Of a DNA stretch of 64,000 nucleotides, positions 3,311 through 59,069 are shown piece by piece (position 1 is the first letter of the stretch; each line of letters starts with the position of its first letter). The position numbers and the translations under genes were made by a program. The notes beneath the pieces were generated by a model, which had not been told where the DNA came from, ran no database searches, and saw nothing but the letters and a program-made list of their open reading frames with translations. The DNA is from Candidatus Tayloriibacteriota bacterium. GTDB lineage: Bacteria > Patescibacteriota > Minisyncoccia > Phycocordibacterales > PALSA-1337. The DNA is taken from assembly GCA_943350765.1 (NCBI GenBank), contig CALRAJ010000001.1, positions 191,066-255,065 of the forward strand. The letters run 5' to 3'.

Positions 3311-3382
3311 GAGATAGTAGTATATACTGCCTTAGAAAAAAAATCAAACTTTTTAAAACTACCCGGACTTGTCTAGCTCACT

Positions 3383-3724: not shown

Positions 3725-3791
3725 CTATGGCAAAACAATTGAAAATTAGTCAAAATTGGTTTTCGCAAAAAACAGTTCTTGCAAAACTCAC

Positions 3792-4760: not shown

Positions 4761-4864
4761 TTAATTATTATATCATGGAGAATTATTTTTAAAATCAACT
4801 TTTACTTTTTATATACACATATACAAAATCTATGGATGAAAATCCATTTCAGGTATTGACAAGT

Positions 4865-4893
4865 ATACCATATTATGGATAATAGAAACCTGA
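4865..4893 (+). promoter_or_regulatory. Candidate sigma70-type promoter (TTGACA - 16/17 nt - GATAAT/ATAATA)
   Basis: TTGACA at 4865-4870 and an AT-rich -10 about 17 nt downstream, roughly 50 nt upstream of the 4941 ORF. Confidence 0.3.
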
Positions 4894-4940
4894 ATCCGTT
4901 CGTCAAAATCAACCTGTCCTAAATAGGAAACTCTGTTCTT

Positions 4941-5300
4941 ATGCTAAATATCTACACCATGACTCTTCAGACGATACACCCCTCACTAAACAAGTATCGC
5001 CAGCTTGAATTATCAGTCTATGATGATTATCCACCACTTGTCGTTGGTCAGCATACCAAACTTCCACACACCTCAGGCGGACATGCGCGCACTGCGTACA
5101 TTGTACGTGTTCGCGAGGTCCTTCGCGAGGCTATTCTTGGAACTCATAAAATGATCCAAGTTAGCCTACACTCAAACGCATTTGCATTGGTTGATGTGAT
5201 TTGTGATGAGGATGATGTTGTCGGTAAGCAGTGGCAGGTAATATCCAAAAAAGAATTCGCATTTCACTTTCTGAGTCCAAATGAGGCGACGATTGAATAA
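4941..5300 (+). CDS. Hypothetical protein
   Basis: 119-aa ORF followed by a clear intrinsic terminator. No recognisable motif. Confidence 0.35.
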   Translation: MLNIYTMTLQTIHPSLNKYRQLELSVYDDYPPLVVGQHTKLPHTSGGHARTAYIVRVREVLREAILGTHKMIQVSLHSNAFALVDVICDEDDVVGKQWQVISKKEFAFHFLSPNEATIE

Positions 5301-5326
5301 GAAAAGGCTCTAGTATCTTGCACCCA

Positions 5327-5357
5327 TCGCCCATAGGAAACTATGGGCTTTTTATTT
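5327..5357 (+). terminator. Rho-independent terminator
   Basis: GCCCATAG-GAAA-CTATGGGC followed by TTTTTATTT. Confidence 0.6.
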
Positions 5358-5552
5358 AATTACCCCAAATAACCCTGCGGCGTACTCGTCGCGGGTACAA
5401 TCATACCTATATCAAAACCACACCCAAATGCTCAAATATTTAAACGGCTAAACACTAGTGTTTAGCCGTTTAATCTGGCTCTGTAGAGCCATTTAGACTT
5501 TTTACCGAAAACTATCATTTTTAAGTAAAAAACTATGATAATTCACTGTTTC

Positions 5553-6434
5553 CTACCCTAGAAAACTAAACACTCTCATCTTTTCCTCCACCACTTGCGA
5601 TACTGCGTCTCTAGAAGGAGCGAGATATTTGTATGGAGCGACTTCTTTTGGATTGGCAGAGAGTGTCGTGTCCAGAGTACTTCGATATGCCACTCGAAGC
5701 TCAGTATTTACATGCACAATAGCCACACCAGCTTTGATTGCCGACTGAATATCCGCATCAGTATTACCAGATGCACCATGAAGTACGAGTGGTACGCCAG
5801 TCGCCTCTGACACCTCTGCCACTCGAGAGATATTGAGTGCGGGATCCTTCCATTTTGCAAGCATGCCGTGAATATTTCCCACGGCAGGTGCTAGCATATC
5901 TACACCAGTCTCATCGACATATCGCTTGGCTTGCTCTGCTGTGGTCAGGTATTCGTCAGATAGATTGATCCCCTCTGGCACAGCATCGAGTACCTTTGAA
6001 GATTTGCCGATATAGCCCAGCTCTGCCTCGACGAGTACTCGCTCACCAAAAAGTGGCTTCTGACTTTTTGCATACTCTACACACTGCTTTGCCACTCTAA
6101 TATTTTCCTCAAACGATAGCTCCGTGCCGTCAAAGATGACCATATCGAAACCGAGGTCGATAGCCTCTTTTACTCGCTCAAAAGAATAGGTATGGTCAGC
6201 GTTTATAAAAATCGGGAAATCGTACTGAGTACGCAAGCTTTTGACTAGAGCTACCGCTTGCTTTGCACCTATAAAATCTCGCTCGCCTTCAGAAACACCG
6301 ATAATGACAGGTAATTTTAATTTCCTTGCCGAATTAAACACCCCCCACAATCCCACTGTGTCGGAGATATTAAAATGACCAATAGCTGTCTTTTTTTCCT
6401 GAGCCTCACTGATGTATTGTTTTAGTGTTTTCAT
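5553..6434 (-). CDS. fba: Class II fructose-bisphosphate aldolase
   Basis: MKTLKQYISEAQEKKTAIGHFNISD...VIIGVSEGE...HGASG...LHGASGNTD shows class II FBA/tagatose-bisphosphate aldolase motifs. The start was set at MKTLKQ rather than the upstream in-frame M. Confidence 0.85.
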   Translation of the reverse strand: MKTLKQYISEAQEKKTAIGHFNISDTVGLWGVFNSARKLKLPVIIGVSEGERDFIGAKQAVALVKSLRTQYDFPIFINADHTYSFERVKEAIDLGFDMVIFDGTELSFEENIRVAKQCVEYAKSQKPLFGERVLVEAELGYIGKSSKVLDAVPEGINLSDEYLTTAEQAKRYVDETGVDMLAPAVGNIHGMLAKWKDPALNISRVAEVSEATGVPLVLHGASGNTDADIQSAIKAGVAIVHVNTELRVAYRSTLDTTLSANPKEVAPYKYLAPSRDAVSQVVEEKMRVFSFLG

Positions 6435-6460
6435 ATATTGTATTATATCGTAGCTTGCCC

Positions 6461-6610
6461 CCAATTACGAAATACTTTTCTTGGCATATCTTTTAAAGGG
6501 TACGGATAAAAATTTACTAATTTTTTCCTGAAATCTCGGCTACCCGCCTGCGAACCCCCTTTAAAAGATACGCCTGCGACAGTATTTCGTAATTGGGGGT
6601 ACCTTAAAAT
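6461..6610. repeat. MITE-like modular repeat, family 2 copy
   Basis: Imperfect inverted terminal repeats of about 40 bp (CCCCCAATTACGAAATAC...TTTTAAAGGG / CCCTTTAAAAGATACGCC...GTATTTCGTAATTGGGGG) flank a core that recurs in inverted orientation at 14088-14212. Segments are also shared with 58021-58150 and 59070-59180. Confidence 0.6.
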
Positions 6611-6627
6611 TTTAAAACCAAACATGG

Positions 6628-7986
6628 CTACTGTGTTTCTGGCAACCCAGCTGTCCTCTGCACCACTCGGAAAATCACGGCACCCAGTACCAAAACGGCT
6701 ATACCGAGCATTATCCAGATTATCCACGGCGCGCGCTCTGAAAGTGGTATTACTGGGGGTACATACTCACCATTTACCCGTTCTGCTTCGAGATTTCCGG
6801 AAATAAATTCATCGCTTTTAAAGTTACGGTATACCTGGGCCAAGTCGTATGATGGAAATACCGCCTTTTCATTACCATAGAAAAGTTTATAGTTATGCTG
6901 TGGCTCTGCTAAAAACTTTATTACCCTAACATATCCGCGGAATTCGAGGTCGTTAATTTTTATCGGCTGACTATCCTGATTATGAATAAGTATTTTTACA
7001 TAACGAGCATTTGACTCACCAAAGGAAACTAAAGTTTTTTCGCCAGATAAATCCTTTGTCTTATACTGATATATTGCATCCCCACCTATATAGCTCCAAA
7101 CTTTTTTATCTGCACTCGAATAAACAGAAACCGATCTTTCAAAATTTCTCGAATCAGTGCTTATAGCAAACTGATCGCTTATAGCACCCATATCTCCAAA
7201 ATCAGGGGAGATTCGTGGATGATTTGTTTTACCATCATCTAGTCTAAAGTCTGCGATTATCTGAGTATCTTTACCAACCTCCACTACCTCAAAAGTAGGA
7301 AAGTAAGAAAGACGATTACCTCTCGCATACACATCTCGCCTAGCACTAGCCCCGAGTACTAGGACAGGATCGCTATCAGAATCAATAATTTTTACCATAA
7401 CATATCGGTACACTGCCTCAGGATATGACACTGTAGTATTACGCACAGGGTAGTCTCGACTATAGTCGTAGATGATTTGATTGTCTGCGAGTAATGACCA
7501 TCTTCCCATGTCATTACTACCATATATCTGAACCTTCTTTCGATAGTTTTTCTGCTCAGCATCGATATTGATATTTATCTGATTATGTCGTGCTGAGCCA
7601 CCAAAATCTACAACAAAGCTAGTGTACTCACCCGCCACAGAACCCTTGTTTAAAATCTGTGTAGTCGGTGCTGTAGTCTGTACCGTGTCACGATCTGTAA
7701 TCAAAAGGTATGGGACTTCTTTATTATCACCTGCATCTACTACTCGCAGATCGCTCAGATGAGTGGTAGAAGAAGCAAATACTTGAGGATCAAGCACCAC
7801 TTGCACAAGTGAAGTCGACTGGGCTACGGACGGTATTTTTATCTCCTTATAAGCCCGCCAATCCTTTTGAGAAAAATCGGCAGACACTGTTGAGACCACT
7901 CCAAACAGAGCAGAAATCGTAATTACCAGTATTCTAGAAAAATTTGAGAAGTGTGTGTTCATGAGATAGTTATATTTTAACTGCAT
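6628..7986 (-). CDS. Secreted or membrane-anchored protein, DUF3999-like (partner of the downstream DUF2339-like membrane protein)
   Basis: N-terminal signal peptide and a C-terminal TM helix (WIIWIMLGIAVLVLGAVIF). Its start overlaps the stop of the upstream gene (ATGA at 7986). Family assignment rests on architecture and gene pairing and is tentative. Confidence 0.4.
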   Translation of the reverse strand: MQLKYNYLMNTHFSNFSRILVITISALFGVVSTVSADFSQKDWRAYKEIKIPSVAQSTSLVQVVLDPQVFASSTTHLSDLRVVDAGDNKEVPYLLITDRDTVQTTAPTTQILNKGSVAGEYTSFVVDFGGSARHNQININIDAEQKNYRKKVQIYGSNDMGRWSLLADNQIIYDYSRDYPVRNTTVSYPEAVYRYVMVKIIDSDSDPVLVLGASARRDVYARGNRLSYFPTFEVVEVGKDTQIIADFRLDDGKTNHPRISPDFGDMGAISDQFAISTDSRNFERSVSVYSSADKKVWSYIGGDAIYQYKTKDLSGEKTLVSFGESNARYVKILIHNQDSQPIKINDLEFRGYVRVIKFLAEPQHNYKLFYGNEKAVFPSYDLAQVYRNFKSDEFISGNLEAERVNGEYVPPVIPLSERAPWIIWIMLGIAVLVLGAVIFRVVQRTAGLPETQ

Positions 7987-9893
7987 TATTTCATTACAAC
8001 TGTTTCAGTATCCGACACGGTCAAGAAACCTTTAATTCGACTCGAAAATCGGAAATAAAGGTACCCAACCACAACAAGGGCAACTCCTAGCACCATAAAT
8101 GCTGCAATACGATAAACCTGATCTAGAAGCCAAATGTCATAAAGGAATGTCTTGAGTACCGTGATCCCAAAAACCACAGTCGCACAGATACGCAACACCG
8201 AGGTTTTTGAAATAATTCCAAGTACGAGTGCTACCAGTGCGTAGGCGATAAAGAATACTGATATTGCGAGGCTAGTAGATTGGATGATATTGGCAGTTGT
8301 CGAAAGATAACGGAAACCATCAACGATTTCAAAAACACCTGCACACAAAACAAGAATATTTGCTATCGCCATAAATACTGAGGCCTTGTGTAAATCCTCC
8401 CTATCCTTTGATGACACATAGAATGCGTGGAAAACATAAGCAATAAAGACGGCGAGGATTGTCGCTATTGCAAACACGATAAATCGCTCGTTGAATATGA
8501 GGATAAAATCTGCTTTTGCAAGGTTTGTATCAAATGCAAATAGACGAAATATACCGAGAGCAAAAATAGGGATCGAGTATGAGACTATTCTCGAACGAAG
8601 CAAGAGTGCCACCCATGCGATAATAGCACTTTCCACAAACCACGAAATAGTGATCCAGAAACCATTGAACTGAATAGGGAAAACGAGAGTGAGGAATAGT
8701 ACCGCCATTCCTGCTGGCAAATAGACGAGGGCTTTTGTCTCTCTTTTTGCATACGAGCCGACGAGCGTAATGAGTGTGTAGACCGCCGTTAGAAAAAGTG
8801 GCAAAAGACCTATGTAGGCAGAGTACTCAGGGTTTAGAATAGAATAGCTTACTGACATATAGATTATTCCTGTCAGCAACATTAAAGCAAAGTCGCCATT
8901 GTTTGGCTTTTTATCATTAAAATAATAGAAGACCAATGACGAACCAGTAAATATCGCCCAAAGTAGTGTAAAGTAGGCTTCGGTCATGAATAGCTTACTC
9001 GTGTCATAATTTCCAAAAAACCACCCTCCTACGAGTAGCAAGGTACCCACCGCTGTACCCCAGACCAGCTGTTTCCAATTTTTAAAGTAAGCAAGCACAA
9101 AAAGTCCCAGATCAAGTAGTGCAACATAAGTCAGAAGTCCAATATCATTTACCACATTTGTCGAAAGTAGGACGGGTGTTAAAAAACCACCGAGAAGTGC
9201 TATACCAGCTATTGCAATAGAGTCATATCTAACCGAAAGTACGATAGAGAAAATAGTGATAATAATCATTCCAAGAAAAGCCGGTACCTGATCGATTTTA
9301 TGATAAAAACCAAAAGCACTATAGAGAGATAGGTAGAGGATCGCGATACCGCCACCCGTCAAGTAAAATGCGTACTTTGGATATTTTCTATAGAACCATT
9401 CTCCCGCACCAATAAAGCCGAGACCGATAATCAAGCCGAGAATAATACGCCCTGTCTCGCCGATGAGGTTGTTATCAAAAGAGAACTTGATGAAAAATCC
9501 AACGCCAAAAAGTATCGCGATTATACCTGCCAACATGAGCCACCTTGTATTAAAAGCAAACTCCGTAGCAGTCGCAGTAGTATTGACAGAGGTTTTTACA
9601 CTACTGTATGTAGGTGAAGCCTGAGGTATGCTTTTAGTTGGGATATTTACTGTGTCAGTCTGATAGTGATGTGTATCCTGAGATGTTTCAGTATGCGAGG
9701 TCTGGATAGGGCTACTGTTAGTAGGAGTACTTGAACCGTAAAGCTCATCTTTTGTAATAATGCCTTTCTGGATGAGAAGTGAGGCGAGACGGTAAGATAT
9801 TTGGCTAGGTTTTTCTGCAATATTCTGATGCTGATTTTTTGAAACAAAATACCATGCGACACAGATAATTATGATAATGAATATTAATTCCAT
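7986..9893 (-). CDS. Large polytopic membrane protein, DUF2339-like
   Basis: 635 aa. An S/T-rich N-terminal region is followed by more than 12 predicted TM helices. It is operonic with the signal-peptide protein at 6628-7986. Confidence 0.45.
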   Translation of the reverse strand: MELIFIIIIICVAWYFVSKNQHQNIAEKPSQISYRLASLLIQKGIITKDELYGSSTPTNSSPIQTSHTETSQDTHHYQTDTVNIPTKSIPQASPTYSSVKTSVNTTATATEFAFNTRWLMLAGIIAILFGVGFFIKFSFDNNLIGETGRIILGLIIGLGFIGAGEWFYRKYPKYAFYLTGGGIAILYLSLYSAFGFYHKIDQVPAFLGMIIITIFSIVLSVRYDSIAIAGIALLGGFLTPVLLSTNVVNDIGLLTYVALLDLGLFVLAYFKNWKQLVWGTAVGTLLLVGGWFFGNYDTSKLFMTEAYFTLLWAIFTGSSLVFYYFNDKKPNNGDFALMLLTGIIYMSVSYSILNPEYSAYIGLLPLFLTAVYTLITLVGSYAKRETKALVYLPAGMAVLFLTLVFPIQFNGFWITISWFVESAIIAWVALLLRSRIVSYSIPIFALGIFRLFAFDTNLAKADFILIFNERFIVFAIATILAVFIAYVFHAFYVSSKDREDLHKASVFMAIANILVLCAGVFEIVDGFRYLSTTANIIQSTSLAISVFFIAYALVALVLGIISKTSVLRICATVVFGITVLKTFLYDIWLLDQVYRIAAFMVLGVALVVVGYLYFRFSSRIKGFLTVSDTETVVMK

Positions 9894-10100
9894 AAATAGT
9901 ATTACTTAGCGTGATTAACGCTGGCTATTATTATTGATATGTCTATGAGTATACTGTATCTTGGGGGATTTAAGAAGTATGGCTAAAGGGTTATGAACAA
10001 TGAAAACGCCAGCAACAACCATATACGCCATTGCGTATATAAGGGAAATACATCTCAGCTATAGCTGAAATGTATTTCTTGTCTAGTGTCAAAATCAATG

Positions 10101-10134
10101 TTGCCCACGATTTTCTACTGAAAATCGTGGGCAA
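10101..10134 (-). terminator. Long hairpin (TTGCCCACGATTTTC-TACT-GAAAATCGTGGGCAA) downstream of 10311-10616; member of the TTTCTACTGAAA hairpin family
   Basis: Perfect 15-bp stem. The TTTCTACTGAAA core recurs in other hairpins in this window. Confidence 0.45.
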
Positions 10135-10140
10135 AAACCT

Positions 10141-10300
10141 ACCCAAACAAGCCGTAAAGGCTCGAGGAGTGGAGACGACGAAGATACAGGAGCCACATAT
10201 CGGTGGCGGGAGTACTGAGCTCAGTAGAGCGAATGTGACGGGCTAGCAAGACGCGTTACAAGCACGGTACACCGTTGAGCCTTTCCGCCAAACCACGCCC
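10141..10300. repeat. Dispersed intergenic repeat, family 1 copy A
   Basis: GAAGATACAGGAGCCACATATCGGTGGCGGGAGTACTGAGCTCAGTAGAGCGAATGTGACGG...GTTACAAGCACGG..GTTGAGCC. Near-identical copies lie at 54815-54945 (same orientation) and 27236-27350 (inverted). Related units lie at 20560-20720 and 51285-51425. Confidence 0.7.
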
Positions 10301-10310
10301 CTACTCAGGC

Positions 10311-10616
10311 TTACTTCCCTCTTTTTTCGTAGTATACATATGTACCAAAATCACCAATCTGCTTGATCAGCTTTTCCTGCTCCAGCTCCTCTAGATACCT
10401 CGTCGCAGTCGCATCTGACACCCCGCAGAGCTTTTGCACATCATCATTTTTCACCCGCCCATCCGCCACCAAATCAAAATACTCCAAAATCTTCCTCTTC
10501 TGCTCCGCTTTCTCCCCCGCCTGCCTCGCTATCAAACTTCCCACTCCATATTTCATCCTCCATATCAAAAGACCCACCACCAGCAGCACCAAGACTAAAA
10601 TTAAAATTGTGTTCAT
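10311..10616 (-). CDS. Small membrane-anchored helix-turn-helix protein
   Basis: N-terminal TM helix (ILILVLVLLVVGLLIW) and a C-terminal winged-HTH-like segment (VQKLCGVSDATATRYLEELEQEKLIKQIG). Confidence 0.45.
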   Translation of the reverse strand: MNTILILVLVLLVVGLLIWRMKYGVGSLIARQAGEKAEQKRKILEYFDLVADGRVKNDDVQKLCGVSDATATRYLEELEQEKLIKQIGDFGTYVYYEKRGK

Positions 10617-10649
10617 AGGGTTAGTATAACATTTTTATGGTTGTTCTAG

Positions 10650-10844
10650 CTACAAATCAAATACCTCCTCAATAGAACCCCTAATCGAATCGCGTATATC
10701 CTTTGCCAGCATTTCATCATATTCAACCATAGATAAGACTGACTGAACCTGCTCAACTAATAAACTTTTTACTCCAATATCTTTAGCCACCTCCCTAACC
10801 TCGTCTTCGGTTATTGTGAATCTTATAGATTTTATTTTTTCCAT
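10650..10844 (-). CDS. Small hypothetical protein (64 aa)
   Basis: Compact acidic ORF between the HTH protein and the DpnI-like gene. No motif recognised. Confidence 0.3.
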   Translation of the reverse strand: MEKIKSIRFTITEDEVREVAKDIGVKSLLVEQVQSVLSMVEYDEMLAKDIRDSIRGSIEEVFDL

Positions 10845-10878
10845 ACCTGATCTTTGATCGAATCAGAAAGAAAGTCAA

Positions 10879-11643
10879 TTAGGATAGTTGATAAGTCCCA
10901 TTTCCGGTAAAAGTAAGGTAGTTCCTATCACGAAGAAACTGTAGTTGCTGGCGAATTTTATCTTTAATATGCTTGTTTTCTGGATGAATCTTCTGAAGCT
11001 CAGATTCAAATTCATACACATCAGCCAGAATAAATTCTTTTTTATTTATCGCATCAATACAATTCATAATATCCAAAATCCAACCCTTTGCATCGGCTTT
11101 TGTAACTTTCTTGAGAAATACAGTCTTTTGCCACTTATCTAATACTTCTTTTTTGTCTATCTCCCTACCGTCTTCCACATAAAAGATTTGCCCCGCTTTA
11201 GGAATTTTTGAAAAGAGAATGTTTGAACCCACCCAGCCCGCCCTTCGGGCAGTTTTTTTTAAAGGATTTCTTTTCTCGATAATTTCAGAAATGAAAAAGT
11301 GCTTCGGCACCACAAAGAAATCATTCACAGACAAAGATTCCGAGTATCCCATGAAAAAAAAGTTCGGTTTAGTCTTAGAGTTTATTCTTTCAATCATTTT
11401 AGAATACGCTCCGGCAGGCACAGTCTTTCCAATCTTTCCTTTCTTCGACTTTAGCTCAAAATCTTCACTGCACTTTTTGCAATAAAAATCTGCAACTGGT
11501 TTATTATTCGTATAGTTATAAATCTGGTCTCCACAACCTGGGCAAAAAATAAAACTCTCTACCCATACCTCAGTCATCACACGAATCTTTTGTGATTGGC
11601 TTGTATAGTTATTTGCAAGTTGTGTGTCGAATGATGATTCCAT
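10879..11643 (-). CDS. DpnI / Dam-replacing-protein (DRP) family methyl-directed type IIM restriction endonuclease-like protein
   Basis: N-terminal ...YTSQSQKIRVMTEVWVESFIFCPGCGDQIYNYTNNKPVADFYCKKCSEDFELKSKKGK... resembles the DpnI/DRP N-terminal region (SQK-R-TE-WV, CPxCG, ADFYC-xC-E-FELKSKKG). The C-terminal region is compatible with a winged-helix domain. Recognition is from memory of the family. Confidence 0.55.
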   Translation of the reverse strand: MESSFDTQLANNYTSQSQKIRVMTEVWVESFIFCPGCGDQIYNYTNNKPVADFYCKKCSEDFELKSKKGKIGKTVPAGAYSKMIERINSKTKPNFFFMGYSESLSVNDFFVVPKHFFISEIIEKRNPLKKTARRAGWVGSNILFSKIPKAGQIFYVEDGREIDKKEVLDKWQKTVFLKKVTKADAKGWILDIMNCIDAINKKEFILADVYEFESELQKIHPENKHIKDKIRQQLQFLRDRNYLTFTGNGTYQLS

Positions 11644-11674
11644 TTTTTTATTTTATTTGGGTAAAAACTTTGAT

Positions 11675-12808
11675 TTATTCATTCGTAAAAAGCTCCAAGT
11701 ACTTTTTGTACTCAAAATCACGACCGTAGGTAGTAAGTCGGTCACGCTGTACAAGAATGCCGATACGCACAAGCTCGCTCACCAATGTATTTGCAGCAGG
11801 ACGAGAAAGTCCTGTCCACTCTTCCACCTTTCGCACATTCACAATAGGAAGTTTATATAACCCCCGAAGCACAGTGAGACCATTTTTTGCTCGACTACTG
11901 CCAAGAGCCATGACTTTGGCCATATCTTTTTCTCTGAGAGCAGTAATGGCACGAGATGTTACCACCGCTTGATCAGCGACAGTTGCAACTCCTTCCAAAA
12001 AGAAATTAATCCATGGAATAATTTCGCCTTTATTATGGTACCCTTCGAGCAAATCGAAGTATGCCTCACGATTCCTTCTAAAGAAAGCGGAAAGATATAG
12101 AACCGGTCGTTCCAAAATCCCTTGTTGACAGAGATAGAAGGTAACGAGCAACCGTCCGACTCGCCCATTACCATCAAGAAAGGGGTGAATAGTTTCAAAT
12201 TGAGCATGCATAAGAGCTGTTTTAATTAATGGTGGTATATCAATATCAGCATGCAAAAACTTTTCAAAATCGTCGAGGGTACGATTCATTTCATGTACTG
12301 GCGGAGGAACAAACCGAGCTGTCGCAGGAGAACCTCCACCAATCCAATTTTGGGTACGGCGAAATTCACCAGGAGTCTTCCCTAGTGCATCACCAGTACC
12401 CTCTAATAATGTTTTGTGCACTTCCTGAATAAGTCTAAGTGAAAGTGGTAATGATTCCAGTCGACGCAGACCTTGGTTCATTGCATCTATATAATGTAAA
12501 ATTCGGTCGACATCTTTCGGTAAATCTTTTGTGATTTCAATCTCCGCACGAATAGCATCACTCATAGTTGCTTGTGTACCCTCAATCTCACTCGAAAGTG
12601 CCGCTTCTTTGCGGGCATACATAAATATAAACAAATCTAGATCGGGAAGTAGCTGAGTAATTCCATCAAGCTTACCCACAGATAAAGCTGCTCGAGCATG
12701 AAGCATATGAGTAAGTTTCAAGAAAATAGGCATTTCCACAAATGGAAACGGTCCGGGGATAAAAGCTTTGTAGCCTTGGGGTTGTTGTATAAATTGACCT
12801 ATTTTCAT
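11675..12808 (-). CDS. Fic/Doc (Fido) family protein with a C-terminal winged HTH
   Basis: Canonical Fic motif HPFLDGNGRVGR. The N-terminal inhibitory motif SSEIEG ([ST]xxxE[GN]) is typical of class II Fic. The C-terminal region is wHTH-like. Confidence 0.8.
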   Translation of the reverse strand: MKIGQFIQQPQGYKAFIPGPFPFVEMPIFLKLTHMLHARAALSVGKLDGITQLLPDLDLFIFMYARKEAALSSEIEGTQATMSDAIRAEIEITKDLPKDVDRILHYIDAMNQGLRRLESLPLSLRLIQEVHKTLLEGTGDALGKTPGEFRRTQNWIGGGSPATARFVPPPVHEMNRTLDDFEKFLHADIDIPPLIKTALMHAQFETIHPFLDGNGRVGRLLVTFYLCQQGILERPVLYLSAFFRRNREAYFDLLEGYHNKGEIIPWINFFLEGVATVADQAVVTSRAITALREKDMAKVMALGSSRAKNGLTVLRGLYKLPIVNVRKVEEWTGLSRPAANTLVSELVRIGILVQRDRLTTYGRDFEYKKYLELFTNE

Positions 12809-12878
12809 ATCTTTACATCATCTATGTAGATGTAAAGATATTAGCATAATACTTAACATCACACAAGGAGATGTAAAG
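12809..12878. promoter_or_regulatory. Palindromic operator-like site at the Fic start (TCTTTACATC..GATGTAAAGA plus a third GATGTAAAG half-site)
   Basis: A 10-bp inverted repeat lies immediately upstream of the Fic ATG (12808). An extra direct half-site lies about 35 nt further upstream. Confidence 0.4.
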
Positions 12879-13061
12879 CCTAACTTGTGGATAAGACATG
12901 GTTTGCCAGCAGTGCATGTATATACCCTTTATTTAAGCCATATTTTGGTCTAAAGGCTCAACGGTACCCGTTGAGCCTTTGAAGCTATAAACGCTCTAAA
13001 AATAGCGAAATTGCTTTGCCAGACATTATGCTATAATAATCGCACCTATAAAAATACAAAT

Positions 13062-14057
13062 ATGTTCAACAAACCTTTTGATTTTGTGGCGGTGGGAGAT
13101 ATTACGACCGATGCATTTATAAAAATAAAAGACGCACATCTGACTTGTGCTATCAACAACACTAAATGCGAAATCTGCCTGAAATTTGCCGACAAAGTAC
13201 CATTTGAGTCTGTTACCGAAGTCAAAGCTGTCGGTAACAGTGCCAATGCTTCCGTATGTGCCTCACGACTCGGTATTAGTTCAGCCCTAGTCAGTGATAT
13301 AGGGCAAGATGAAAATGGTAAAAATTGTCTCACTGAGCTTTCAAAAAATAAAGTCTCGACAAAATACATTTCGACTCATCGAAACATGGCCACCAACTAT
13401 CATTATGTCCTCTGGTACCAAGATGAGCGGACTATCCTAGTCAACCACAAAGAGTATCCATACAGTCTACCGAAAATAGTGACACCAAAGTGGGTATACC
13501 TGAGCTCACTCGCTTCAAACTCCCTCGACTACCATCTCGAAATCATAGCCTTTCTCAAAACACATCCAGAGACCAAGCTCGCCTTTCAGCCCGGGACTTT
13601 CCAGATGAAACTTGGCAAAGAAAAGCTTGCCGAGCTCTATGCCCTGTCAGAAGTATTTGTTTGTAATGTAGAAGAATCACAACGCATCCTAGGGACATCA
13701 GAAACCAATATCAAAAATCTACTCTCCAGCATGCGTGCCATCGGCCCGAAAATAGTACTCATTACCGATGGCCCAAAAGGTGCCTACATGGACGACGGCA
13801 CGACGCAGTACTTTATGCCCATCTACCCAGACCCAAAACCACCTTTTGAGAGGACTGGCTGTGGCGATGCCTTTGCCTCGACTTTTGTCACTGCCCTCGC
13901 ACTCGGCAAGACCCCTCTCGAGGCACTGATGTGGGCACCGATAAATCCGATGTCTGTAGTACAATATGTAGGTGCTCAGGAAGGGCTTCTCGATAGGATA
14001 ATACTAGAAAAGCTCCTCGCCGAAGCACCAGCCGATTACAAACCGAAAGTTATTTAA
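13062..14057 (+). CDS. PfkB-family carbohydrate kinase (ribokinase-like)
   Basis: N-terminal FDFVAVGDITTD and the C-terminal GCGDAFASTF PfkB signature. The start was set at MFNKPFDF. Confidence 0.75.
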   Translation: MFNKPFDFVAVGDITTDAFIKIKDAHLTCAINNTKCEICLKFADKVPFESVTEVKAVGNSANASVCASRLGISSALVSDIGQDENGKNCLTELSKNKVSTKYISTHRNMATNYHYVLWYQDERTILVNHKEYPYSLPKIVTPKWVYLSSLASNSLDYHLEIIAFLKTHPETKLAFQPGTFQMKLGKEKLAELYALSEVFVCNVEESQRILGTSETNIKNLLSSMRAIGPKIVLITDGPKGAYMDDGTTQYFMPIYPDPKPPFERTGCGDAFASTFVTALALGKTPLEALMWAPINPMSVVQYVGAQEGLLDRIILEKLLAEAPADYKPKVI

Positions 14058-20559: not shown

Positions 20560-20720
20560 CGCAAGAGCCATACTGGTGGCGAAAGTCCTGAGCCTAGCAG
20601 GGCGTAGGGTAGGAGACACGACGGTGGCGGGCATGCTGAGCTCAGTAGAGCGTAGTACTCGATTTATATAGTCGCTCCGCTCCTTATAAATCGGTGCTTG
20701 CCCTACGCTTTGGTAAGCTC
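20560..20720. repeat. Dispersed intergenic repeat, family 1, composite copy D (tandem and inverted units)
   Basis: AGAGCCATACTGGTGGCGAAAGTCCTGAGCCTAGCAGGGCGTAGGGTA ... GGTGGCGGGCATGCTGAGCTCAGTAGAGCGTAGTACTCG ... TGCCCTACGCTTTGGTAAGCTCAGGACTTTCGGTGCC. Confidence 0.6.
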
Positions 20721-27350: not shown

Positions 27351-27984
27351 CTTGAGCCGTTCAAATGGCTATACAGAGCCGTTTTATGAAGATTGGTAAG
27401 GACGAGTTTAAGGTGTGATTTGCCTCAATGGCTCAACCACACTGGTTGAGCCATTGAGGCAAAATACGGCATTATTTGAGGCTCACTTTCCATCCTCTAT
27501 ATATGTGGATAATAGAATTGACAGTAAAACTAAAAGTAGTACAGTAAACATTGGCATCTCCCCTAAATCCGATCACTTCAGTGAATAGGGTGAGGAGGTG
27601 GAGTTTGGAACAAACATTGGAGGTATTATGGAAGTAAAGCCCCTTAGTCTCATTGAACAAGTGTTGATTGAGGATCCCAAAAACATTGGTATCCTGTTCT
27701 ATTTTGAGAATTTGCTCGAAGAGAGTATCAGACTCACGGGTGGTTCCTGAAAAAACTTTTAACTCGCAAGCTATTTGGTAACTCGAATGGCTTTTTTTTA
27801 TATATAATTTTGCATGGTGTATTTGAACTAAAGTTTGCACATAAAGCCAAACAAGAGTAATATATACTACATTCAAAGATTGTTATGGCTACCAACCATA
27901 AATCCGCCAAAAGTGGATGACAAAATCCTAATTTGAAACAAATAATACCCTCTCCAATTAACGCTTGGACACTTATCTCATCAA

Positions 27985-48236: not shown

Positions 48237-51200
48237 TTACATTACAATATTTACCACTCTTCCTTGTACATAGATAACTTTCTTTATCTGCTGTCTATCT
48301 ATCCACTTTTTTACTTCTGGAATACCCTGTGCTTGATTTTTTACTACCTCCTCAGTCGAATCTTTTGACACAATAATCTGCCCGCGCACCTTACCATTTA
48401 TCTGCACTGCAATAGTAACCATTTCCTCAACAAGCTTTTCTGGGTCAAATACTGGCCATGTTGCTATGTGTATAGAATTTTTATTACCCATCGCCGACCA
48501 AAGCTCCTCAGCCATATGTGGAGCAAATGGAGCGAGCAACTGTAGTAACACCCCCATCTGCTCTTCTGTAACCACTGTTTTTTCCATCGCATTTAGTAAA
48601 ATCATCAGCGACGAAATCGCGGTATTAAAACTGAAACCTTGAATATCTTCTCCTACCTTTTTAATAGTTTTGTTTAGTACAATTTCAAATGTACCCGCTT
48701 CCAACCCACGATCTACCGTCTCATGTTTGGTGTCTGTAAATCTACACCCAAGCTTCCACACCCGTTCGAGAAATCTTCTCGAGCCAATCATGTTTTGTGT
48801 ACTCCACGCAATACTCTGCTCAAACGGACCCATAAACATTTCATACACTCGAAAAGTATCGGCACCGTATGTAGCCATGACATCATCCGGGTTTACTACA
48901 TTACCAAATCGCTTACTCATCTTGCGACCATCCTCACCCATGATGAGTCCTTGATTTTTTAGCTCGGTGAAAGGCTCACTCGTCGAAACTACACCAATAT
49001 CATAGAGAAACTTATGCCAAAAACGAGCATATATTAGATGTCGTGTTGCGTGCTCTGTACCACCCACATAGAGATCCACTGGTGCCCAATATTTTTCCTT
49101 TTTAGGATCTACCAATGCTTTTTTGTTTTTCGAGTCCATGTAGCGGAGATAGTACCAAGACGACCCAGCCCACTGTGGCATGGTGTTGGTCTCTCTTTTT
49201 GCCGGGCCTTTACATTGCGGACATTTAGTATTCACCCACTTTGAGATAGTCGCAAGTGGTGACTCCCCTGTACCAGTCGGCTCGTATGATTTTACATTCG
49301 GCAATTTTACTGGCAAATCTTTCTCTGGTACTGCCACTACACCTTGCCCGGCAGGATTGCTTAGGGCACATTTTTCACAATGTACGAGTGGTATCGGCTC
49401 GCCCCAATATCTCTGCCTTGAAAATACCCAATCACGGAGTTTGTATTTAGTAACCATTTTACCTCCGACAAATTCAGTAATTTTCTTTTTTGCTTCTTTG
49501 GAATTTAATCCGTCAAATTTATCAGAGTAAGTAAGTAGCCCTTCGCCAGTAAAACACTCTATCCACCCACTAGAAAGATTTTGATAAATAGAATTAAGTA
49601 AGTCTTTGTTGGGTACAGTAAAATCAAAGTTATCGACCCGCACATCTTCTAGTACCGAATTATTCCCCCATACAAATTTCTTACCGATAATGGTATCGAA
49701 GTATATTCCATTTTCCTCTTCTAACAAAAATAGATCTAGCCAAACTCCGTCCTTATCACTCCAGAAAGCTTTGTGATTTTTCCAAAAATGACTTCCAGTT
49801 TTTTCACCAGTACTCAATTTAGAATTAAATCCTCTATCTGCAAGCTGTTTCTCGATAATCTTCCAGCCATTTTGCGTAACAAAAACATCTACATCCGAAT
49901 GGAGACCAAATTTCTTGTCACTCTGCGCTAATCTAGCCATACCACCAACCAATACCATTATGAAGTCATGTTTTCTAGATAAATCAAATACTTCCTTTAA
50001 TAGTTTACAATTATTCTCCTTGTTTGTGTCGGAATAATTTTTCTCATCTTTAATTACACATCGAATCGGTATATTATACTTCTTTGCAAACTCCCAATCC
50101 CGCTCATCATGTGCCGGCACTGCCATAACCGCACCGGTACCGTAGTCCGCGAGTACATAGTCGGCAATAAACATTGGGATCTTTTCTTTTGTTGCAGGAT
50201 TTATCGCCCACACACCATCGAGCTTTACACCAGTCTTTTCCTTGCCTGCATCTGTTCGCTCTATCTCAGTTTTCTTTTTTGACAAAGCAACATACTGACC
50301 TACTGATTCGGCGTTTTTAAGGACTCCTTTATGATTTTCATCTATCGCAAGTGTTACCCAAGGATGCTCTGGAGAAAGCACGAGAGCTGTTGCCCCAAAA
50401 AGTGTGTCCGCACGAGTAGTAAATACTGGCACTAAACCCGGCTTCCCACCATTTTCAAATTCTACTGCAAATGATATTTCTGACCCCTCACTCCTACCAA
50501 TCCAGTTCCTCTGACTCTCTTTAATAGACTCAGGCCAATTTAGGCTATCAATATCTTTGAGCAGTCGATCCGCATAGTCTGTAATCCGCAAAACCCACTG
50601 ACGAATAGGCTTTTTTTCTACCACACTACTACAGCGTTCACACTTACCATCCTCTAGGTCTTCGTTAGCAAGGCCTGTCTTGCACGATGGACACCAGTTG
50701 ATCGGCTCGTTGGACTCGTATGCTAAACCTTTTTTAAAAAGTTGTAGGAAAATCCACTGTGTCCAGCGATAGTATTCTGGATCGGTAGTATCTACTTCAC
50801 GCGACCAGTCATAGTCTAGTCCGATGATCTCCAACTGTTCTTTATAGCGTTTAATATTTTTCTTTACCGCCACACTCGGGTGGATTTTATTTTTAATGGC
50901 ATAATTTTCAGCAGGAAGACCGAAGGCATCAAAACCCATCGGGTGTAATACATTAAAACCCTGCATTCGTTTGAAACGCGAGTAGACATCGGTAGCGATA
51001 TATCCCTTTGGATGACCGACATGGAGACCTTCTCCCGACGGGTACGGAAACATGTCTAAAATGTAGCATTTATTGTTTTTAGCTGTATCGGCAGATTTCG
51101 GCTCAACTGTTTTATACAGCTTTTTTCTCTCCCATATCCTTTGCCATTTAATTTCAATCCGTTTATGGTTATACTCCGCAAGTTTCTGCTTGCCATGCCG

Positions 51201-51260
51201 TAGCGTAATCGCGGAGGATGGACACTTTTTTTCTATCTTTATATGGTCGTATTGCTTCAT
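48237..51260 (-). CDS. leuS: Leucyl-tRNA synthetase with an extra inserted domain of about 150 aa
   Basis: HIGH region (PYPSGEGLHVGH), editing-domain motifs, AHDERDWEFA and KMSKR are present. Between AHDERDWEFAKKYNIPI and YKLRDWVFSRQRYWGEPIP there are about 200 aa, versus about 70 aa in E. coli LeuRS. The extra region includes HDFIMVLVGGMARLAQSDKKFGLHSDVDVFV. Confidence 0.85.
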   Translation of the reverse strand: MKQYDHIKIEKKCPSSAITLRHGKQKLAEYNHKRIEIKWQRIWERKKLYKTVEPKSADTAKNNKCYILDMFPYPSGEGLHVGHPKGYIATDVYSRFKRMQGFNVLHPMGFDAFGLPAENYAIKNKIHPSVAVKKNIKRYKEQLEIIGLDYDWSREVDTTDPEYYRWTQWIFLQLFKKGLAYESNEPINWCPSCKTGLANEDLEDGKCERCSSVVEKKPIRQWVLRITDYADRLLKDIDSLNWPESIKESQRNWIGRSEGSEISFAVEFENGGKPGLVPVFTTRADTLFGATALVLSPEHPWVTLAIDENHKGVLKNAESVGQYVALSKKKTEIERTDAGKEKTGVKLDGVWAINPATKEKIPMFIADYVLADYGTGAVMAVPAHDERDWEFAKKYNIPIRCVIKDEKNYSDTNKENNCKLLKEVFDLSRKHDFIMVLVGGMARLAQSDKKFGLHSDVDVFVTQNGWKIIEKQLADRGFNSKLSTGEKTGSHFWKNHKAFWSDKDGVWLDLFLLEEENGIYFDTIIGKKFVWGNNSVLEDVRVDNFDFTVPNKDLLNSIYQNLSSGWIECFTGEGLLTYSDKFDGLNSKEAKKKITEFVGGKMVTKYKLRDWVFSRQRYWGEPIPLVHCEKCALSNPAGQGVVAVPEKDLPVKLPNVKSYEPTGTGESPLATISKWVNTKCPQCKGPAKRETNTMPQWAGSSWYYLRYMDSKNKKALVDPKKEKYWAPVDLYVGGTEHATRHLIYARFWHKFLYDIGVVSTSEPFTELKNQGLIMGEDGRKMSKRFGNVVNPDDVMATYGADTFRVYEMFMGPFEQSIAWSTQNMIGSRRFLERVWKLGCRFTDTKHETVDRGLEAGTFEIVLNKTIKKVGEDIQGFSFNTAISSLMILLNAMEKTVVTEEQMGVLLQLLAPFAPHMAEELWSAMGNKNSIHIATWPVFDPEKLVEEMVTIAVQINGKVRGQIIVSKDSTEEVVKNQAQGIPEVKKWIDRQQIKKVIYVQGRVVNIVM

Positions 51261-51284: not shown

Positions 51285-51425
51285 GAGCGGGAGCCAAGAG
51301 CCATACTGGTGGCGAAAGTCCTGAGCTTAGCAAAGCGTAGGGCAAGAGCCATACAGGAGCCATACTGGTGGCGGGAGTACTAAAGCTCACCAGAGCGTAG
51401 TACTGGTAGCGAAGATGCTGAGTTT
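51285..51425. repeat. Dispersed intergenic repeat, family 1, tandem-unit copy E
   Basis: Repeated units AGAGCCATACTGGTGGCG[AG][AG]AGT.CTGAGCT.AGCA.AGCGTAG, between two and three units. Confidence 0.6.
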
Positions 51426-51494
51426 AGCAAAATAAAGTACAAGCGAGTGAGAAAAAGTTAATAGATTATAGTTTTTAGTTTATAGACGTATAGA

Positions 51495-51523
51495 TTGACA
51501 ATATATATAAAATAGCATAATGT
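51495..51523 (+). promoter_or_regulatory. Candidate sigma70-type promoter (TTGACA - 17 nt - TAATGT)
   Basis: About 25 nt upstream of the ATG of the 51546 ORF. Confidence 0.3.
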
Positions 51524-51545
51524 TCATTCCAGTTGCACAATAGCT

Positions 51546-51872
51546 ATGAAAACATATACCTCGTCCCGTCGGAATACGCTCCTTGGGTTGCTCTGTGCAG
51601 CCCTCGGATCCATCAAAAGTCTTGGGGCAAAATCCCCCGAACCGAAATACTACCGAGTGCAGTGGAAGAAACTCCACGACGAGCCCGTCGGACCTGGGGA
51701 TATGTGGGTCTGCCACGAAACGGACCCCAACACCCCAAAACGGCAAAGTGAGAACTGCTACAACCTGCAGATGCAGGCCATTCACGGAAGTCATTGGGGC
51801 ACACCGGCTAAGAGTATCAGTCGGGGCAATGGTGACTATTGGAGACCGACTGGACTCGTTCCTGTTTTTTGA
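51546..51872 (+). CDS. Small Tat-signal secreted protein, paralog A (unknown function)
   Basis: Twin-arginine motif SRRNTLLGLL and a conserved core PKYYRVQWKKLHDEPVGPGDMWV.H.TDPNTP shared with 52212-52538. GC-richer than the genome background. Its own promoter and terminator are present. Confidence 0.55.
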   Translation: MKTYTSSRRNTLLGLLCAALGSIKSLGAKSPEPKYYRVQWKKLHDEPVGPGDMWVCHETDPNTPKRQSENCYNLQMQAIHGSHWGTPAKSISRGNGDYWRPTGLVPVF

Positions 51873-51887
51873 TCAATCAACTATCGC

Positions 51888-51915
51888 ACACTGTCTTTGA
51901 GACAGTTTTTTATTT
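51888..51915 (+). terminator. Rho-independent terminator
   Basis: ACTGTCT-TTG-AGACAGT followed by TTTTTTATTT. Confidence 0.55.
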
Positions 51916-52211
51916 AAAAAAATACGAAAAACCATAGTTTTCCGAATGCCAGAAAAGCCAATAAATGGGCCATTTGAAGGGCTCAACAGCCCTGTTGAGC
52001 CGTTCAAATGGCTGGTTACAACCTAGCGAGAACGGTTCTGACCGGGTGAAAGCCCATCTGGTTTCATTGAAATGACTAATTACTAGACTAGTTTACAATG
52101 TGGACATTTGAGCTTGTCTCACATTTGCAATATAATTTGACAATACATAAAGAAATAATGTATGCTACCCTATAGCCTGAACAAACATTGGTAACAAAAG
52201 ATTAATCTATT

Positions 52212-52538
52212 ATGAAGCAAGATGCTGTCATTACTGGTCAGTCCCGTCGGAATACGCTCCTTGGGTTGCTCTATGCCGTCCTTGGACTGAAGTTGGAAGT
52301 TGAAGCAAAAACTCCCGTGCCCAAATATCAAAGGGTGCAGTGGAAGAAACTCCACGACGAGCCCGTCGGACATGGAGATATGTGGGTTATGCACGCAACG
52401 GATCCAAACACTCCGGATAACCTACACTTCCTTGAAATGCACAGGGCTGGTAAACATTTCCACGGAATTCCAGCAAAGGATATACTCTATCCCAATGGTA
52501 ATTTTTGGAGGCCAGTTGCCATCGTTGATGTCAACTGA
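52212..52538 (+). CDS. Small Tat-signal secreted protein, paralog B
   Basis: SRRNTLLGLL twin-arginine motif. About 50% identical to 51546-51872 over the full length (KYQRVQWKKLHDEPVGHGDMWVMHATDPNTP). Confidence 0.55.
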   Translation: MKQDAVITGQSRRNTLLGLLYAVLGLKLEVEAKTPVPKYQRVQWKKLHDEPVGHGDMWVMHATDPNTPDNLHFLEMHRAGKHFHGIPAKDILYPNGNFWRPVAIVDVN

Positions 52539-52552
52539 TAAAAGATACCCTC

Positions 52553-52580
52553 AGCACTGCCCCAAAAGCAGTTTTTTATT
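52553..52580 (+). terminator. Rho-independent terminator
   Basis: GCACTGC-CCCAAAA-GCAGT followed by TTTTTTATTT. Confidence 0.5.
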
Positions 52581-52584
52581 TAAA

Positions 52585-53016
52585 TCATTTGCTATCAACA
52601 AATCCGATCTTTTTGACAAAAGCTGGAATAAACTTCTGATGACCTATAAATATTTCTTTTGGTAAATTGTCTAAATCAAACCATTTCCATTCTGCAAATT
52701 TATCTGGCTCTGTTACCTTTAGTTCACCTGACCAATTTTTTGCAAGAAAATTGATATGCACATAATGCACTTTCTCCAATGGATCATTTACTAGATGTAA
52801 AAATTCTAATTCATTTGATATTATACCAGTCTCCTCCTCCAATTCTCTTTTAGCTGCACCTGCTAGTGATTCTCCATATTCAAAATGACCTCCTGGTAAA
52901 CACCATGTTCCATAGCCAGTTTTTCCTATTCTTTTACCAAATAAAATCTTTCCGTCTTTAAAAACAAATATATTTACACCGATCTTTGGATATGATTTTT
53001 GATCGTTTGAGTTCAT
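52585..53016 (-). CDS. NUDIX hydrolase
   Basis: Nudix box GGHFEYGESLAGAAKRELEEETGI. Confidence 0.8.
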   Translation of the reverse strand: MNSNDQKSYPKIGVNIFVFKDGKILFGKRIGKTGYGTWCLPGGHFEYGESLAGAAKRELEEETGIISNELEFLHLVNDPLEKVHYVHINFLAKNWSGELKVTEPDKFAEWKWFDLDNLPKEIFIGHQKFIPAFVKKIGFVDSK

Positions 53017-53227
53017 TGTGATTAGATAATATATTAAATCAATTTACCCAGGCTCGTGCCTAAACCGCAGTAGCGGATTGGTATCTACGCTTCGCTTCGA
53101 CCCTTGGCTGGCTCACTCTGGGTCATTGAATTTAAAATATAATTTCTAAAGAAATTATATTTTAAATTCAATCTGCCCTGCATCTCTCTTTACAGGCCCG
53201 ATGCTGGATCTCGGATTTAAAATCCTA

Positions 53228-54325
53228 CTAGATTTTAAACTCTACGACATCCCCATCTTTTACCACATACTCCTTTCCCTCTGTCCGTACCAAACCCTTT
53301 TCTCGAGCCACTCCGTATGAGCCTGAGGCGAGAAGCTTGTCCCACTCGATAACTTCCGCACGCACAAACTTATCTTTAAAATCCGTGTGGATCGCCGTAC
53401 CAGCCAGAGGTGCTGTCCAACCTTTTCGTATTGTCCAAGCTCGAGTCTCCTCGACTCCAGTCGTAAAATAGGTAATCAGGTCGAGCACTTCATATCCAGC
53501 GCGAATAAGTGTATCGATACCATCGTCCTTTGCCCCTAACCCATCTCGCATTTCTTTTTTATCCGCATCAGATAGGTCCTTGAGCTCATGTTCAAAACCC
53601 GCGTCCACCACCACCCATTTTGCGCCAGTCTTTTTAAAATGTTCGATCAGTCGGGTATACCTTGCATCATTTATCTCATCAAGATTTTTGCCTCCAGCTT
53701 TTTTGTTTAAAACATACAAAAATGGCTTTGCGGTCAGCAAGTGCAAATGTTTGAGTAATGGTTTTTCAAATTCATCTGTAGTAACGGTACTGACGAGCTT
53801 CTCTGCCTCAAGAGCATTTTTTAATTTCTCTAGCAGTCCATTTTCAATCACTGCCTCTTTTTTGCCACGCTTTATATCACTTTGAATGTTTGAAAGACGC
53901 TTGGTCACTGTTTGAAGGTCGGCGAGGATAAGCTCGAGATTGATAACCTCGATATCATTGAGTGGGTCTATTTTACCATCGACATGGATTACATTATCGT
54001 CTTCAAAAATACGCACGACCTCAGCAATAGCATCCGTCTCACGGATATTAGTGAGGAATTGATTACCCAAACCCTCACCTGCCGAGGCACCTTTTACGAG
54101 CCCTGCAATATCCACAAACTCCACCGCCGCAGGCACCGTTTTTAATGTTTTAGAAAATGCAGACAACTTCCAAAGACGCTCATCTGGTACGGCTACTACA
54201 CCTACAGAAGGGTCAATTGTACAAAAAGGGTAGTTTTCAGCAGGCACACTCTTTTTAGTAAGTGCGTTAAAAAGCGTTGATTTACCGACATTTGGAAGTC
54301 CGACAATACCGATGGATAGTGACAT
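53228..54325 (-). CDS. ychF: Ribosome-binding ATPase YchF (Obg-family GTPase)
   Basis: [23 protein letters not shown], then the TGS/YchF C-terminal domain (…DFIRAEVI…). Length 365 aa. Confidence 0.85.
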
Positions 54326-54814: not shown

Positions 54815-54945
54815 TCAAGGAGCGTAGGCGACGAAGATACAGGAGCCATATCGGTGGCGGGAGTAATGAGCTCAGCAGAGCGAATGTGACGGTCTAGTAG
54901 GATTCGTTACAAGCACAGGGCTGTTGAGCCGTTAGATTTTACCTA
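54815..54945. repeat. Dispersed intergenic repeat, family 1 copy C
   Basis: GACGAAGATACAGGAGCCATATCGGTGGCGGGAGTAATGAGCTCAGCAGAGCGAATGTGACGG..GTTACAAGCACAGGGCTGTTGAGCCGTTAG. Near-identical to copy A. Confidence 0.65.
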
Positions 54946-58841: not shown

Positions 58842-59069
58842 ATACGATATCGAACACCTAGGTACCCTGAACTACGAAAATCTATTTAAAATATACACCT
58901 TCAAAGTATTTAGTGATTTGGGGTCATAAACTTAAACGGCTAAACACTAGCGTTTAGCCGTTTAAAGCTAGTACTAGAGCCATATTTTAGCCTAAAGGCT
59001 CAACGGCGCGCCGTTGAGCCTTTAAGCTATTTTCTCCTCCACCACCCACCTCCCCATAGAATCTAAAAA

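Follow-up and report, generated by a model that had tools for sequence, protein, structure and literature searches.

Two small paralogs with predicted Tat-type signals and an undescribed β-rich domain in the leuS–ychF interval of a CPR genome

Small proteins exported by the TatAC form of the twin-arginine translocation (Tat) pathway in monoderm bacteria carry signals in which [S/T]-R-R marks the passage from the n-region to the h-region. The h-region is short, Gly/Ala/Ser-rich and weakly hydrophobic, the c-region contains a basic residue and ends in an A-x-A-like cleavage site, and the cargo behind it is compact and able to prefold. The hallmarks of Tat signals are the strictly retained arginine pair, the weak hydrophobicity of the h-region and the basic "Sec-avoidance" residue of the c-region, and the usual reason for export by this route is a bound cofactor. 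Among the bacteria of the Candidate Phyla Radiation (CPR), TatA and TatC have been reported in some Microgenomatia, Paceibacteria and Saccharimonadia (PMC9166423). Here we describe two neighboring open reading frames, ORF A and ORF B, in a stretch of 64,000 nucleotides (hereafter, the window) of contig CALRAJ010000001.1 from a Candidatus Tayloriibacteriota bacterium. On balance, and with caution, we lean towards reading them as independently transcribed, Tat-exported paralogs with a small β-domain, which are probably non-enzymatic extracellular binding or structural modules.

51546–51872, + strand: ORF A, 108 aa, the A-type copy, which we read as ancestral
52212–52538, + strand: ORF B, 108 aa, the divergent paralog

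An initial annotation, made from the letters of the window, had proposed two paralogs of 108 aa at this place. Both reading frames lie at the coordinates given there, and BLASTP aligned the two products at 58% amino acid identity (E = 4e-40), with the common SRRNTLLGLL motif and the conserved core.

The signal of ORF A comprises residues 1–29, with S7-R8-R9-N-T-L-L, the h-region LLGLLCAALGSI and K24 in the c-region, and that of ORF B contains S11-R12-R13-N-T-L-L. In both cases, the consecutive arginines (R8-R9 and R12-R13) lie at the n/h boundary within the first ∼35 residues. The c-regions read IK-SLGA↓K in ORF A and LK-LEVEA↓K in ORF B (arrows, predicted cleavage); processing is probable after L-G-A28 in the former, which is a sub-optimal site, and probably follows V-E-A in the latter. 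The h-region NTLLGLLCAALGSI consists of 14 uncharged residues, and the best 11-residue Kyte–Doolittle window of ORF A scores 2.2, whereas the other signal or transmembrane N-termini in the window score 2.5–3.8 and carry K or mixed charges, never RR.

The same features recur throughout the family. Among the members with an N-terminal hydrophobic segment, 27 have the arginine pair and ∼7 have genuine signals without it. S or T precedes the pair in ∼20 of the 27, hydrophobic residues follow two to three positions after it, and a K or R in the c-region, ahead of an A-x-A-like site, is near-universal. Distant members have textbook motifs (HRRQFLATLGG in P0033 and TRRGALLSALL in P0046). No gene outside this family has a credible RR signal in the window or in ∼150 kb of related CPR contigs. 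As the conservation of RR, the weak h-region and the basic c-region residue match the Tat hallmarks, a Tat-type signal on ORF A and ORF B, already suspected in the initial annotation, is well supported at the level of sequence.

The family itself turned out to be very rare and undescribed, and largely confined to CPR-type genomes. Neither product had a match in Pfam, NCBIfam, PHROGs or PADLOC. A word-indexed search of 5.8 billion proteins returned three relatives with ORF A alone and 18 with the alignment, all of them "hypothetical" and without a Pfam domain, and an exhaustive HMMER profile search over 1.84 billion representatives gave 56 sequences at E ≤ 1e-3 and 43 at E ≤ 1e-10. In scans of GTDB genomes, one family query had no match and another matched a single metagenome-assembled genome, labelled Candidatus Saccharibacteria. 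No member was present in viral_contigs, among the INPHARED phages (tblastn, 50,697 phage genomes) or among the PLSDB plasmids. We rejected a phage, plasmid or defence origin from these negatives and those with PHROGs and PADLOC; one signal-less member does sit among small co-directional genes, and two of these match phage families.

The conserved unit of ∼75 aa has the signature (in ORF A numbering) W40 ... G51-D52 ... P61-N62 ... (NLQMQAxH) ... G85 ... W99-R100-P101. Trp, Gly, Asp, Pro, Asn and Arg make up the family-conserved positions, and Cys, His and Met are not among them, which makes a redox or metal cofactor unlikely; the "cofactor-containing" protein that had been put forward for this locus was thus not borne out. 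A CusF-like His/Met/Trp metal or cofactor site was also discarded, because M53, H57, M76 and H80 of ORF A are not conserved in the family.

This unit corresponds to the β-rich domain of ORF A (residues ∼30–108). AlphaFold2, supplied with the family alignment, modelled ORF A with a mean predicted local distance difference test score (pLDDT) of 83, and of at least 90 for residues 31–108; the ORF B model (AlphaFold2; mean pLDDT 85) has the same order of strands. The domain is thus confidently modelled as a small β-rich fold. Foldseek found no structural relative of the domain in PDB (best E at least 0.74) or BFVD (best E at least 0.19), and sequence-profile searches of PDB were empty. The best BFVD match, the small phage domain DUF551 (PF04448), is at noise level (E = 0.19, probability 0.25, TM score 0.23). 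In DUF551, the first strand contains Trp and an aromatic-x-Pro motif lies at the C terminus, a likeness that we take to be superficial, and some signal-less family members share with it a context of phage-like gene runs, but no family member matches DUF551 in Pfam even at E ≤ 1, and we regard it as a lead only. The alternating family pattern K-[IV]-x-W-x-x-L ... L-Q-[IM] ... G-x-Y is reminiscent of immunoglobulin V-set and I-set domains at their strands C, E and F, and P0060, a eukaryotic immunoglobulin-repeat protein, gave nine matches to the family profile with a summed E of 8e-8. We judged this similarity to be spurious, a matter of weak matches adding up.

The domain occurs in several architectures. 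About 30 of the 68 family proteins lack any signal and consist of little more than the domain, whereas P0046 and P0055 have two tandem copies behind an RR signal. In P0048, the domain is fused to an MshEN domain, and in P0036, P0049 and P0056 to a second unannotated domain, in either order, which suggests a functional link between the two uncharacterised domains in signal-less members. We also noted the conserved pattern of this second domain, ...Y[RK]xxGxVR[ST]xxDA[DE]xLHMF[FW]SxxxVPxGLTxEEVxxCI...

In the reading that we lean towards, the primary products of ORF A and ORF B would be pre-proteins that carry a twin-arginine-type signal peptide. Their ∼79-aa β-rich domain would most likely fold in the cytoplasm and then cross the single membrane through a minimal TatA/TatC translocase, and signal peptidase I would release it after LGA (ORF A) or VEA (ORF B). 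Outside the cell, the domain would most likely serve as a non-enzymatic binding or structural module.

Several points weigh against this reading. In SRRNTLL, the S, RR and L fit the consensus S/T-R-R-x-F-L-K, the Phe of which is replaced by Thr and the Lys by Leu. The strict pattern of TatP is RR.[FGAVML][LITMVF], which the Thr fails; about half of the RR signals of the family pass it (RRQFL, RRSVL, RRNLI and RRGAL). ORF A and ORF B had no match at E ≤ 1 to PF10518 (TAT_signal) or TIGR01409, which are very short and insensitive models, and one of 19 members matched PF10518 at a non-significant E of 0.072. Neither tatA nor tatC was detected by tblastn and motif scan in the window or in six related loci (L001–L006), and the TatC and MttA_Hcf106 families were absent from the Pfam lists of the related loci (∼150 kb). 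Unlike the usual Tat substrates, the family has no conserved cofactor-ligand residues. Neither context nor homology points to a binding partner, and the signal-less members, including the one in the phage-like run, imply that the basic function of the domain does not need export. Tat is also patchy in CPR, with tatBC in only one Saccharibacteria genome among those analysed (PMC6031116).

Part of this evidence would be accommodated if export proceeded through the general secretory (Sec) pathway, in a genome without Tat; the RR pair would then be no more than the positively charged n-region of a standard signal peptide that the family has passed down. The lack of Tat genes in the 64 kb and the related contigs, the absence of Tat from most of the Saccharibacteria analysed (PMC6031116), the Thr at the Phe position and the non-RR signals of P0008, P0020, P0024 and P0043 all speak for it. 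However, RR is kept in 27 signal-bearing sequences that have diverged to ∼30% identity and is never replaced by KK, RK or KR; it comes together with the preceding S/T, the weakly hydrophobic h-region and the Sec-avoiding basic residue, and the other secreted or membrane proteins of the window do not look alike. We therefore consider export through Sec rather unlikely, while taking it seriously.

It is also conceivable that the N-terminal segment is never cleaved and serves as a membrane anchor, which would keep the domain tethered on the outer side of the membrane instead of releasing it. The L-G-A site of ORF A is weak at position −3, and many monoderm surface proteins are tethered in this manner. 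On the other hand, the uncharged stretch of 12–14 residues is too short for a stable transmembrane helix, and A-x-A-like sites recur in the family (VEA, KAA, RAAS, TEA and AKA), which makes an anchor improbable. A lipoprotein was rejected outright: there is no lipobox ([LVI][ASTVI][GAS]C), G-L-L-C17 of ORF A has a disallowed Leu at −1, and the Cys is replaced by Tyr in ORF B.

Next, we consider the location of the pair, which lies in the interval between leuS and ychF.

48237–51260, − strand: leuS, flanking the ORF A side (product of 1007 aa)
52585–53016, − strand: NUDIX gene, flanking the ORF B side (Pfam E = 6e-26)
53228–54325, − strand: ychF-type GTPase gene, next after the NUDIX gene

The adjacent YchF is 95–96% identical to unnamed metagenome proteins and ∼80% identical to proteins named Candidatus Paceibacterota, Parcubacteria or Patescibacteria group. 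The host looks Paceibacteria-like from these relatives, in agreement with the CPR host proposed before. In four related loci (L001 and L002, relatives at ∼80% nucleotide identity, and L004 and L007, more complete contigs), the order MnmA, YceG, DUF8128, sigma factor, leuS, family gene, variable gene and ychF is common to all, and each has one A-type copy in the same leuS–ychF slot. ORF A is 79–82% identical to the single-copy orthologs P0001 and P0002. Among the A-type orthologs of this slot, synonymous divergence (dS) is 0.5–1.6 and the ratio of non-synonymous to synonymous divergence (dN/dS) is 0.12–0.22, indicating that the gene is real, constrained and old at this position. In our reading, the slot is a long-standing home of the family gene in this Paceibacteria-like clade.

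The gene beside ychF varies among the relatives, being a NUDIX gene, a GNAT gene, a gene of 179 aa or none. In a contig of a more distant relative that keeps the gene order (L016, from Logan SRR26424594; YchF 81% identical), the slot has no family member; between NUDIX and leuS (12386–13546), it holds an unrelated gene for a predicted membrane or secreted protein of 386 aa, with a GC content of 0.519 against 0.385 for the contig and a GC content at third codon positions (GC3) of 0.594. The leuS–ychF interval looks like a hotspot for lineage-specific GC-rich genes. In other CPR lineages, the family gene is found between prfA and rpsB (L010) or beside His_Phos (L005), and because its loci differ between lineages, it has probably moved between them over long timescales.

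We observed a marked compositional excess in the family gene. ORF A has a GC content of 0.538, which places it in the top 0.1% of 327-nt windows (whole window, 0.411), and no other of the 51 window genes reaches its GC3 of 0.587 (mean 0.381, standard deviation 0.077). ORF B is only mildly raised (GC 0.483, top 6% of 327-nt windows; GC3 0.495). In the AT-rich hosts (the window, L001, L002, L004–L008 and L010), the family gene lies 8–15 GC points above its contig, with a GC3 of 0.59–0.73 against ∼0.38, whereas in the GC-rich hosts (L011, L012 and L014) its composition equals that of the surroundings.

Three causes of this lasting excess were considered, and none of them accounts for it. Dual coding or an antisense gene was rejected, as the stop counts in the five alternative frames equal those of synonymous-codon shuffles (six genes); the ORFs in other frames that the initial annotation had listed are present, and since shuffled sequences are equally open, they are a by-product of composition. 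Expression-linked codon bias was set aside because the other high-GC3 genes of the window are not a highly expressed class, and because in L010 the ribosomal-protein and tsf genes have a GC3 of 0.26–0.41 against 0.62 for the family gene among them. Selected mRNA structure found no support either: the minimum free energy, compared with synonymous shuffles, gave a mean z of −0.46, with none significant. Polarised synonymous changes numbered 18 GC>AT against 11 AT>GC, which are small counts, and in the control with ychF, very AT-rich outgroups introduce a bias. By a rough relaxation estimate, a GC3 of 0.70–0.73 at the observed dS would be too high to result from one ancient acquisition and neutral amelioration since then.

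A bolder version of the Tat reading, to which we give little credence, would take the orphan β-domain as a new fold and as the principal or only cargo that keeps a minimal TatAC in Paceibacteria-like CPR bacteria, exported folded to the cell surface for contact with a host or partner cell, with its GC-richness in AT-rich genomes actively maintained. Recurrent recombinational replacement, GC-biased conversion at a hotspot and selection on GC3 would be the candidates for such maintenance, and not recent transfer.

The divergence between ORF A and ORF B is a mosaic, with dS of ∼0.5 in the 5′ half and ∼3 (saturated) in the 3′ half, so that the duplication, which had been described as recent, is not simply so. 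The 5′ halves have perfect identity runs of 32 and 37 nt, and also lineage-specific synonymous states that are common to both copies and not found in the orthologs. The 3′ half of ORF B has a deletion of four codons and has lost the NLQMQAxH motif; the family fold is still predicted for its product. We rejected a foreign source for the C-terminal half of ORF B, since the local A-type orthologs, at 54% identity, remain the closest relatives of this half. The simplest reading of these sequences is that ORF B is a local paralog, either old or diverged very rapidly, and that gene conversion with ORF A has homogenised its 5′ half.

A sister strain displays a different arrangement. In L003 (ENA ERZ27265266, k141_1538144), positions 1–1151 are 97.6% identical in nucleotide sequence to window positions 51504–53332, and a single hybrid gene replaces the pair; the same NUDIX gene as in the window comes after it. 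This hybrid has the promoter and residues 1–51 of ORF A joined to ORF B from residue 52 onwards, with the junction inside the 37-nt identity run. Unequal homologous recombination between ORF A and ORF B would produce such a gene. With k = 141 indicated by the name of the contig and a repeat of only 37 nt, we hold an assembly artefact to be less likely. L003 and the window thus present a structural polymorphism between a hybrid and a two-gene form. In the proposed mechanism, the two copies of the window's lineage would exchange sequence by homologous recombination, gene conversion having homogenised the 5′ half and unequal crossing-over having given the single A/B hybrid in the sister strain.

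That the pair is recently acquired GC-rich foreign cargo, duplicated after its arrival, is very improbable: ORF A is the strongest GC3 outlier of the window, the family occurs at different loci in CPR lineages (L005 and L010), in GC-rich genomes and in a phage-like contig, and the L016 slot holds a different GC-rich gene, but the same-slot orthologs have a conserved promoter and terminator and synonymous sites near saturation (dS 0.5–1.6), dN/dS is 0.12–0.22, the 3′ half of ORF B is saturated relative to ORF A, the GC excess is constant in every AT-rich host, and the phage, plasmid and viral-contig collections gave no match, so that "recent" is largely refuted.

The sequences around the two genes suggest that each may be transcribed on its own. 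The following promoter-like and terminator-like features were observed:

51495–51523, + strand: promoter-like site of ORF A, −35 TTGACA at 51495–51500 and −10-like TAATGT at a spacing of 17 nt, or CATAAT at 15 nt
52108–52136, + strand: first promoter-like site of ORF B, TTGAGC-17-TATAAT (scan score 10/12)
52137–52166, + strand: second promoter-like site of ORF B, TTGACA-18-TATGCT (scan score 10/12)
51890–51912, + strand: intrinsic-terminator-like hairpin and T-run of ORF A, 7-bp stem with a TTTTTTATTTA tail
52556–52578, + strand: intrinsic-terminator-like hairpin and T-run of ORF B, homologous to the ORF A terminator

The ORF A site has a weak −10 and was not called by the consensus scan. In DNA alignments with the orthologs of L001, L002, L004 and L007, its TTGACA is invariant and the −10-like box is kept. 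The TTGACA site of ORF B lies within a segment duplicated from the ORF A promoter (51489–51512 against 52131–52154, 79% identical). In narrower bounds, the hairpin with its T-run spans 51890–51906 for ORF A and 52556–52572 for ORF B. The terminator repeat CAGTTTTTTATTTAAA is identical on the 3′ side of both genes, and the terminator of ORF A is kept in four orthologous loci in the DNA alignment. This phylogenetic footprint supports the earlier proposal that each gene would have its own promoter and its own terminator.

The intergenic regions also contain dispersed repeats, which had no Rfam match and no tRNAs:

51969–52012, no strand assigned: palindrome between ORF A and ORF B, 21-nt arms that are 95% complementary, holding GGCTCAAC / GTTGAGCC
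1053–1076, 12955–12977, 27430–27452, 51980–52001 and 58997–59020, intergenic: GGCTCAAC hairpins
10274, 27239, 51100, 54923 and 60077: single copies of GGCTCAAC
51286–51420, + strand: repeat units upstream of ORF A, GAGCCATACTGGTGGCG...CTGAGCTTAGCA.AGCGTAG, dispersed and not specific to this locus
20565–20690, 51286–51420 and 54843–54900, + strand: GAGCCATACTGGTGGCG-type repeat stretches

GGCTCAAC occurs 15 times in the window against 1.4 expected, mostly as hairpins of the form aaaGGCTCAAC-N7/8-GTTGAGCCttt, of which there are five near-identical intergenic copies. A second variant, cGGCTCAACAGnCCTGTGCTTGTAACGnnTnnTACTAnACCG, is present at 10274 (−), 27239 (+) and 54923 (−). From their sequence, these hairpins look like a dispersed element of the repetitive extragenic palindrome (REP) or bidirectional-terminator kind. 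The other repeat, GAGCCATACTGGTGGCG[AG][AG]AGT.CTGAGC.TAGCA.AGCGTAG, forms intergenic units of ∼48–59 nt, all on the + strand, with copies at 20565, 51298, 51357 and 54843 (four against 0.08 expected). Of the two kinds of repeat that had been thought to separate ORF A from ORF B, the GGCTCAAC palindrome does lie between them, whereas the GAGCCATACTGGTGGCG units are upstream of ORF A.

We made three further observations on the neighborhoods of the family. LeuS of the window is long (1007 aa), and its ortholog in L004 (6951–9842) has an internal NUDIX-family Pfam match, which suggests an inserted domain in the LeuS of this clade. In L013 (GCA_040384205.1, CPR-like; 1515–11915), the S10/spc ribosomal-protein cluster is broken between rplB and rpsS by an insert with a dihydroorotate dehydrogenase gene, an unannotated gene, the fused family member P0036 and a histidine kinase gene. 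In L010, a pair resembling a diversity-generating retroelement (the accessory protein bAvd with an RVT_1 reverse transcriptase) occupies 963–2388, at a distance of ∼6 kb from the family member.

Neither the family nor the fold predicted for it has been described, but small exported hypothetical proteins are, as a kind, commonplace. It stays a family of hypothetical proteins, and the current understanding is not overturned. Most CPR bacteria have never been cultured; they are tiny episymbionts, and almost nothing of their surface and secreted protein complement has been characterised. A family that is confidently foldable, has no relative among solved folds, is found mostly in CPR and carries some of the few credible Tat signals there offers a compact target for structural genomics, and it may help as a marker in asking whether reduced genomes keep Tat, and for what reason. 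The GC3 excess specific to this gene has outlasted synonymous divergence up to saturation, which is hard to account for by standard amelioration. On a small scale, the locus also illustrates paralog dynamics cleanly: partial gene conversion would have acted on two copies in one lineage and an unequal crossover would have left a hybrid in its sister strain.

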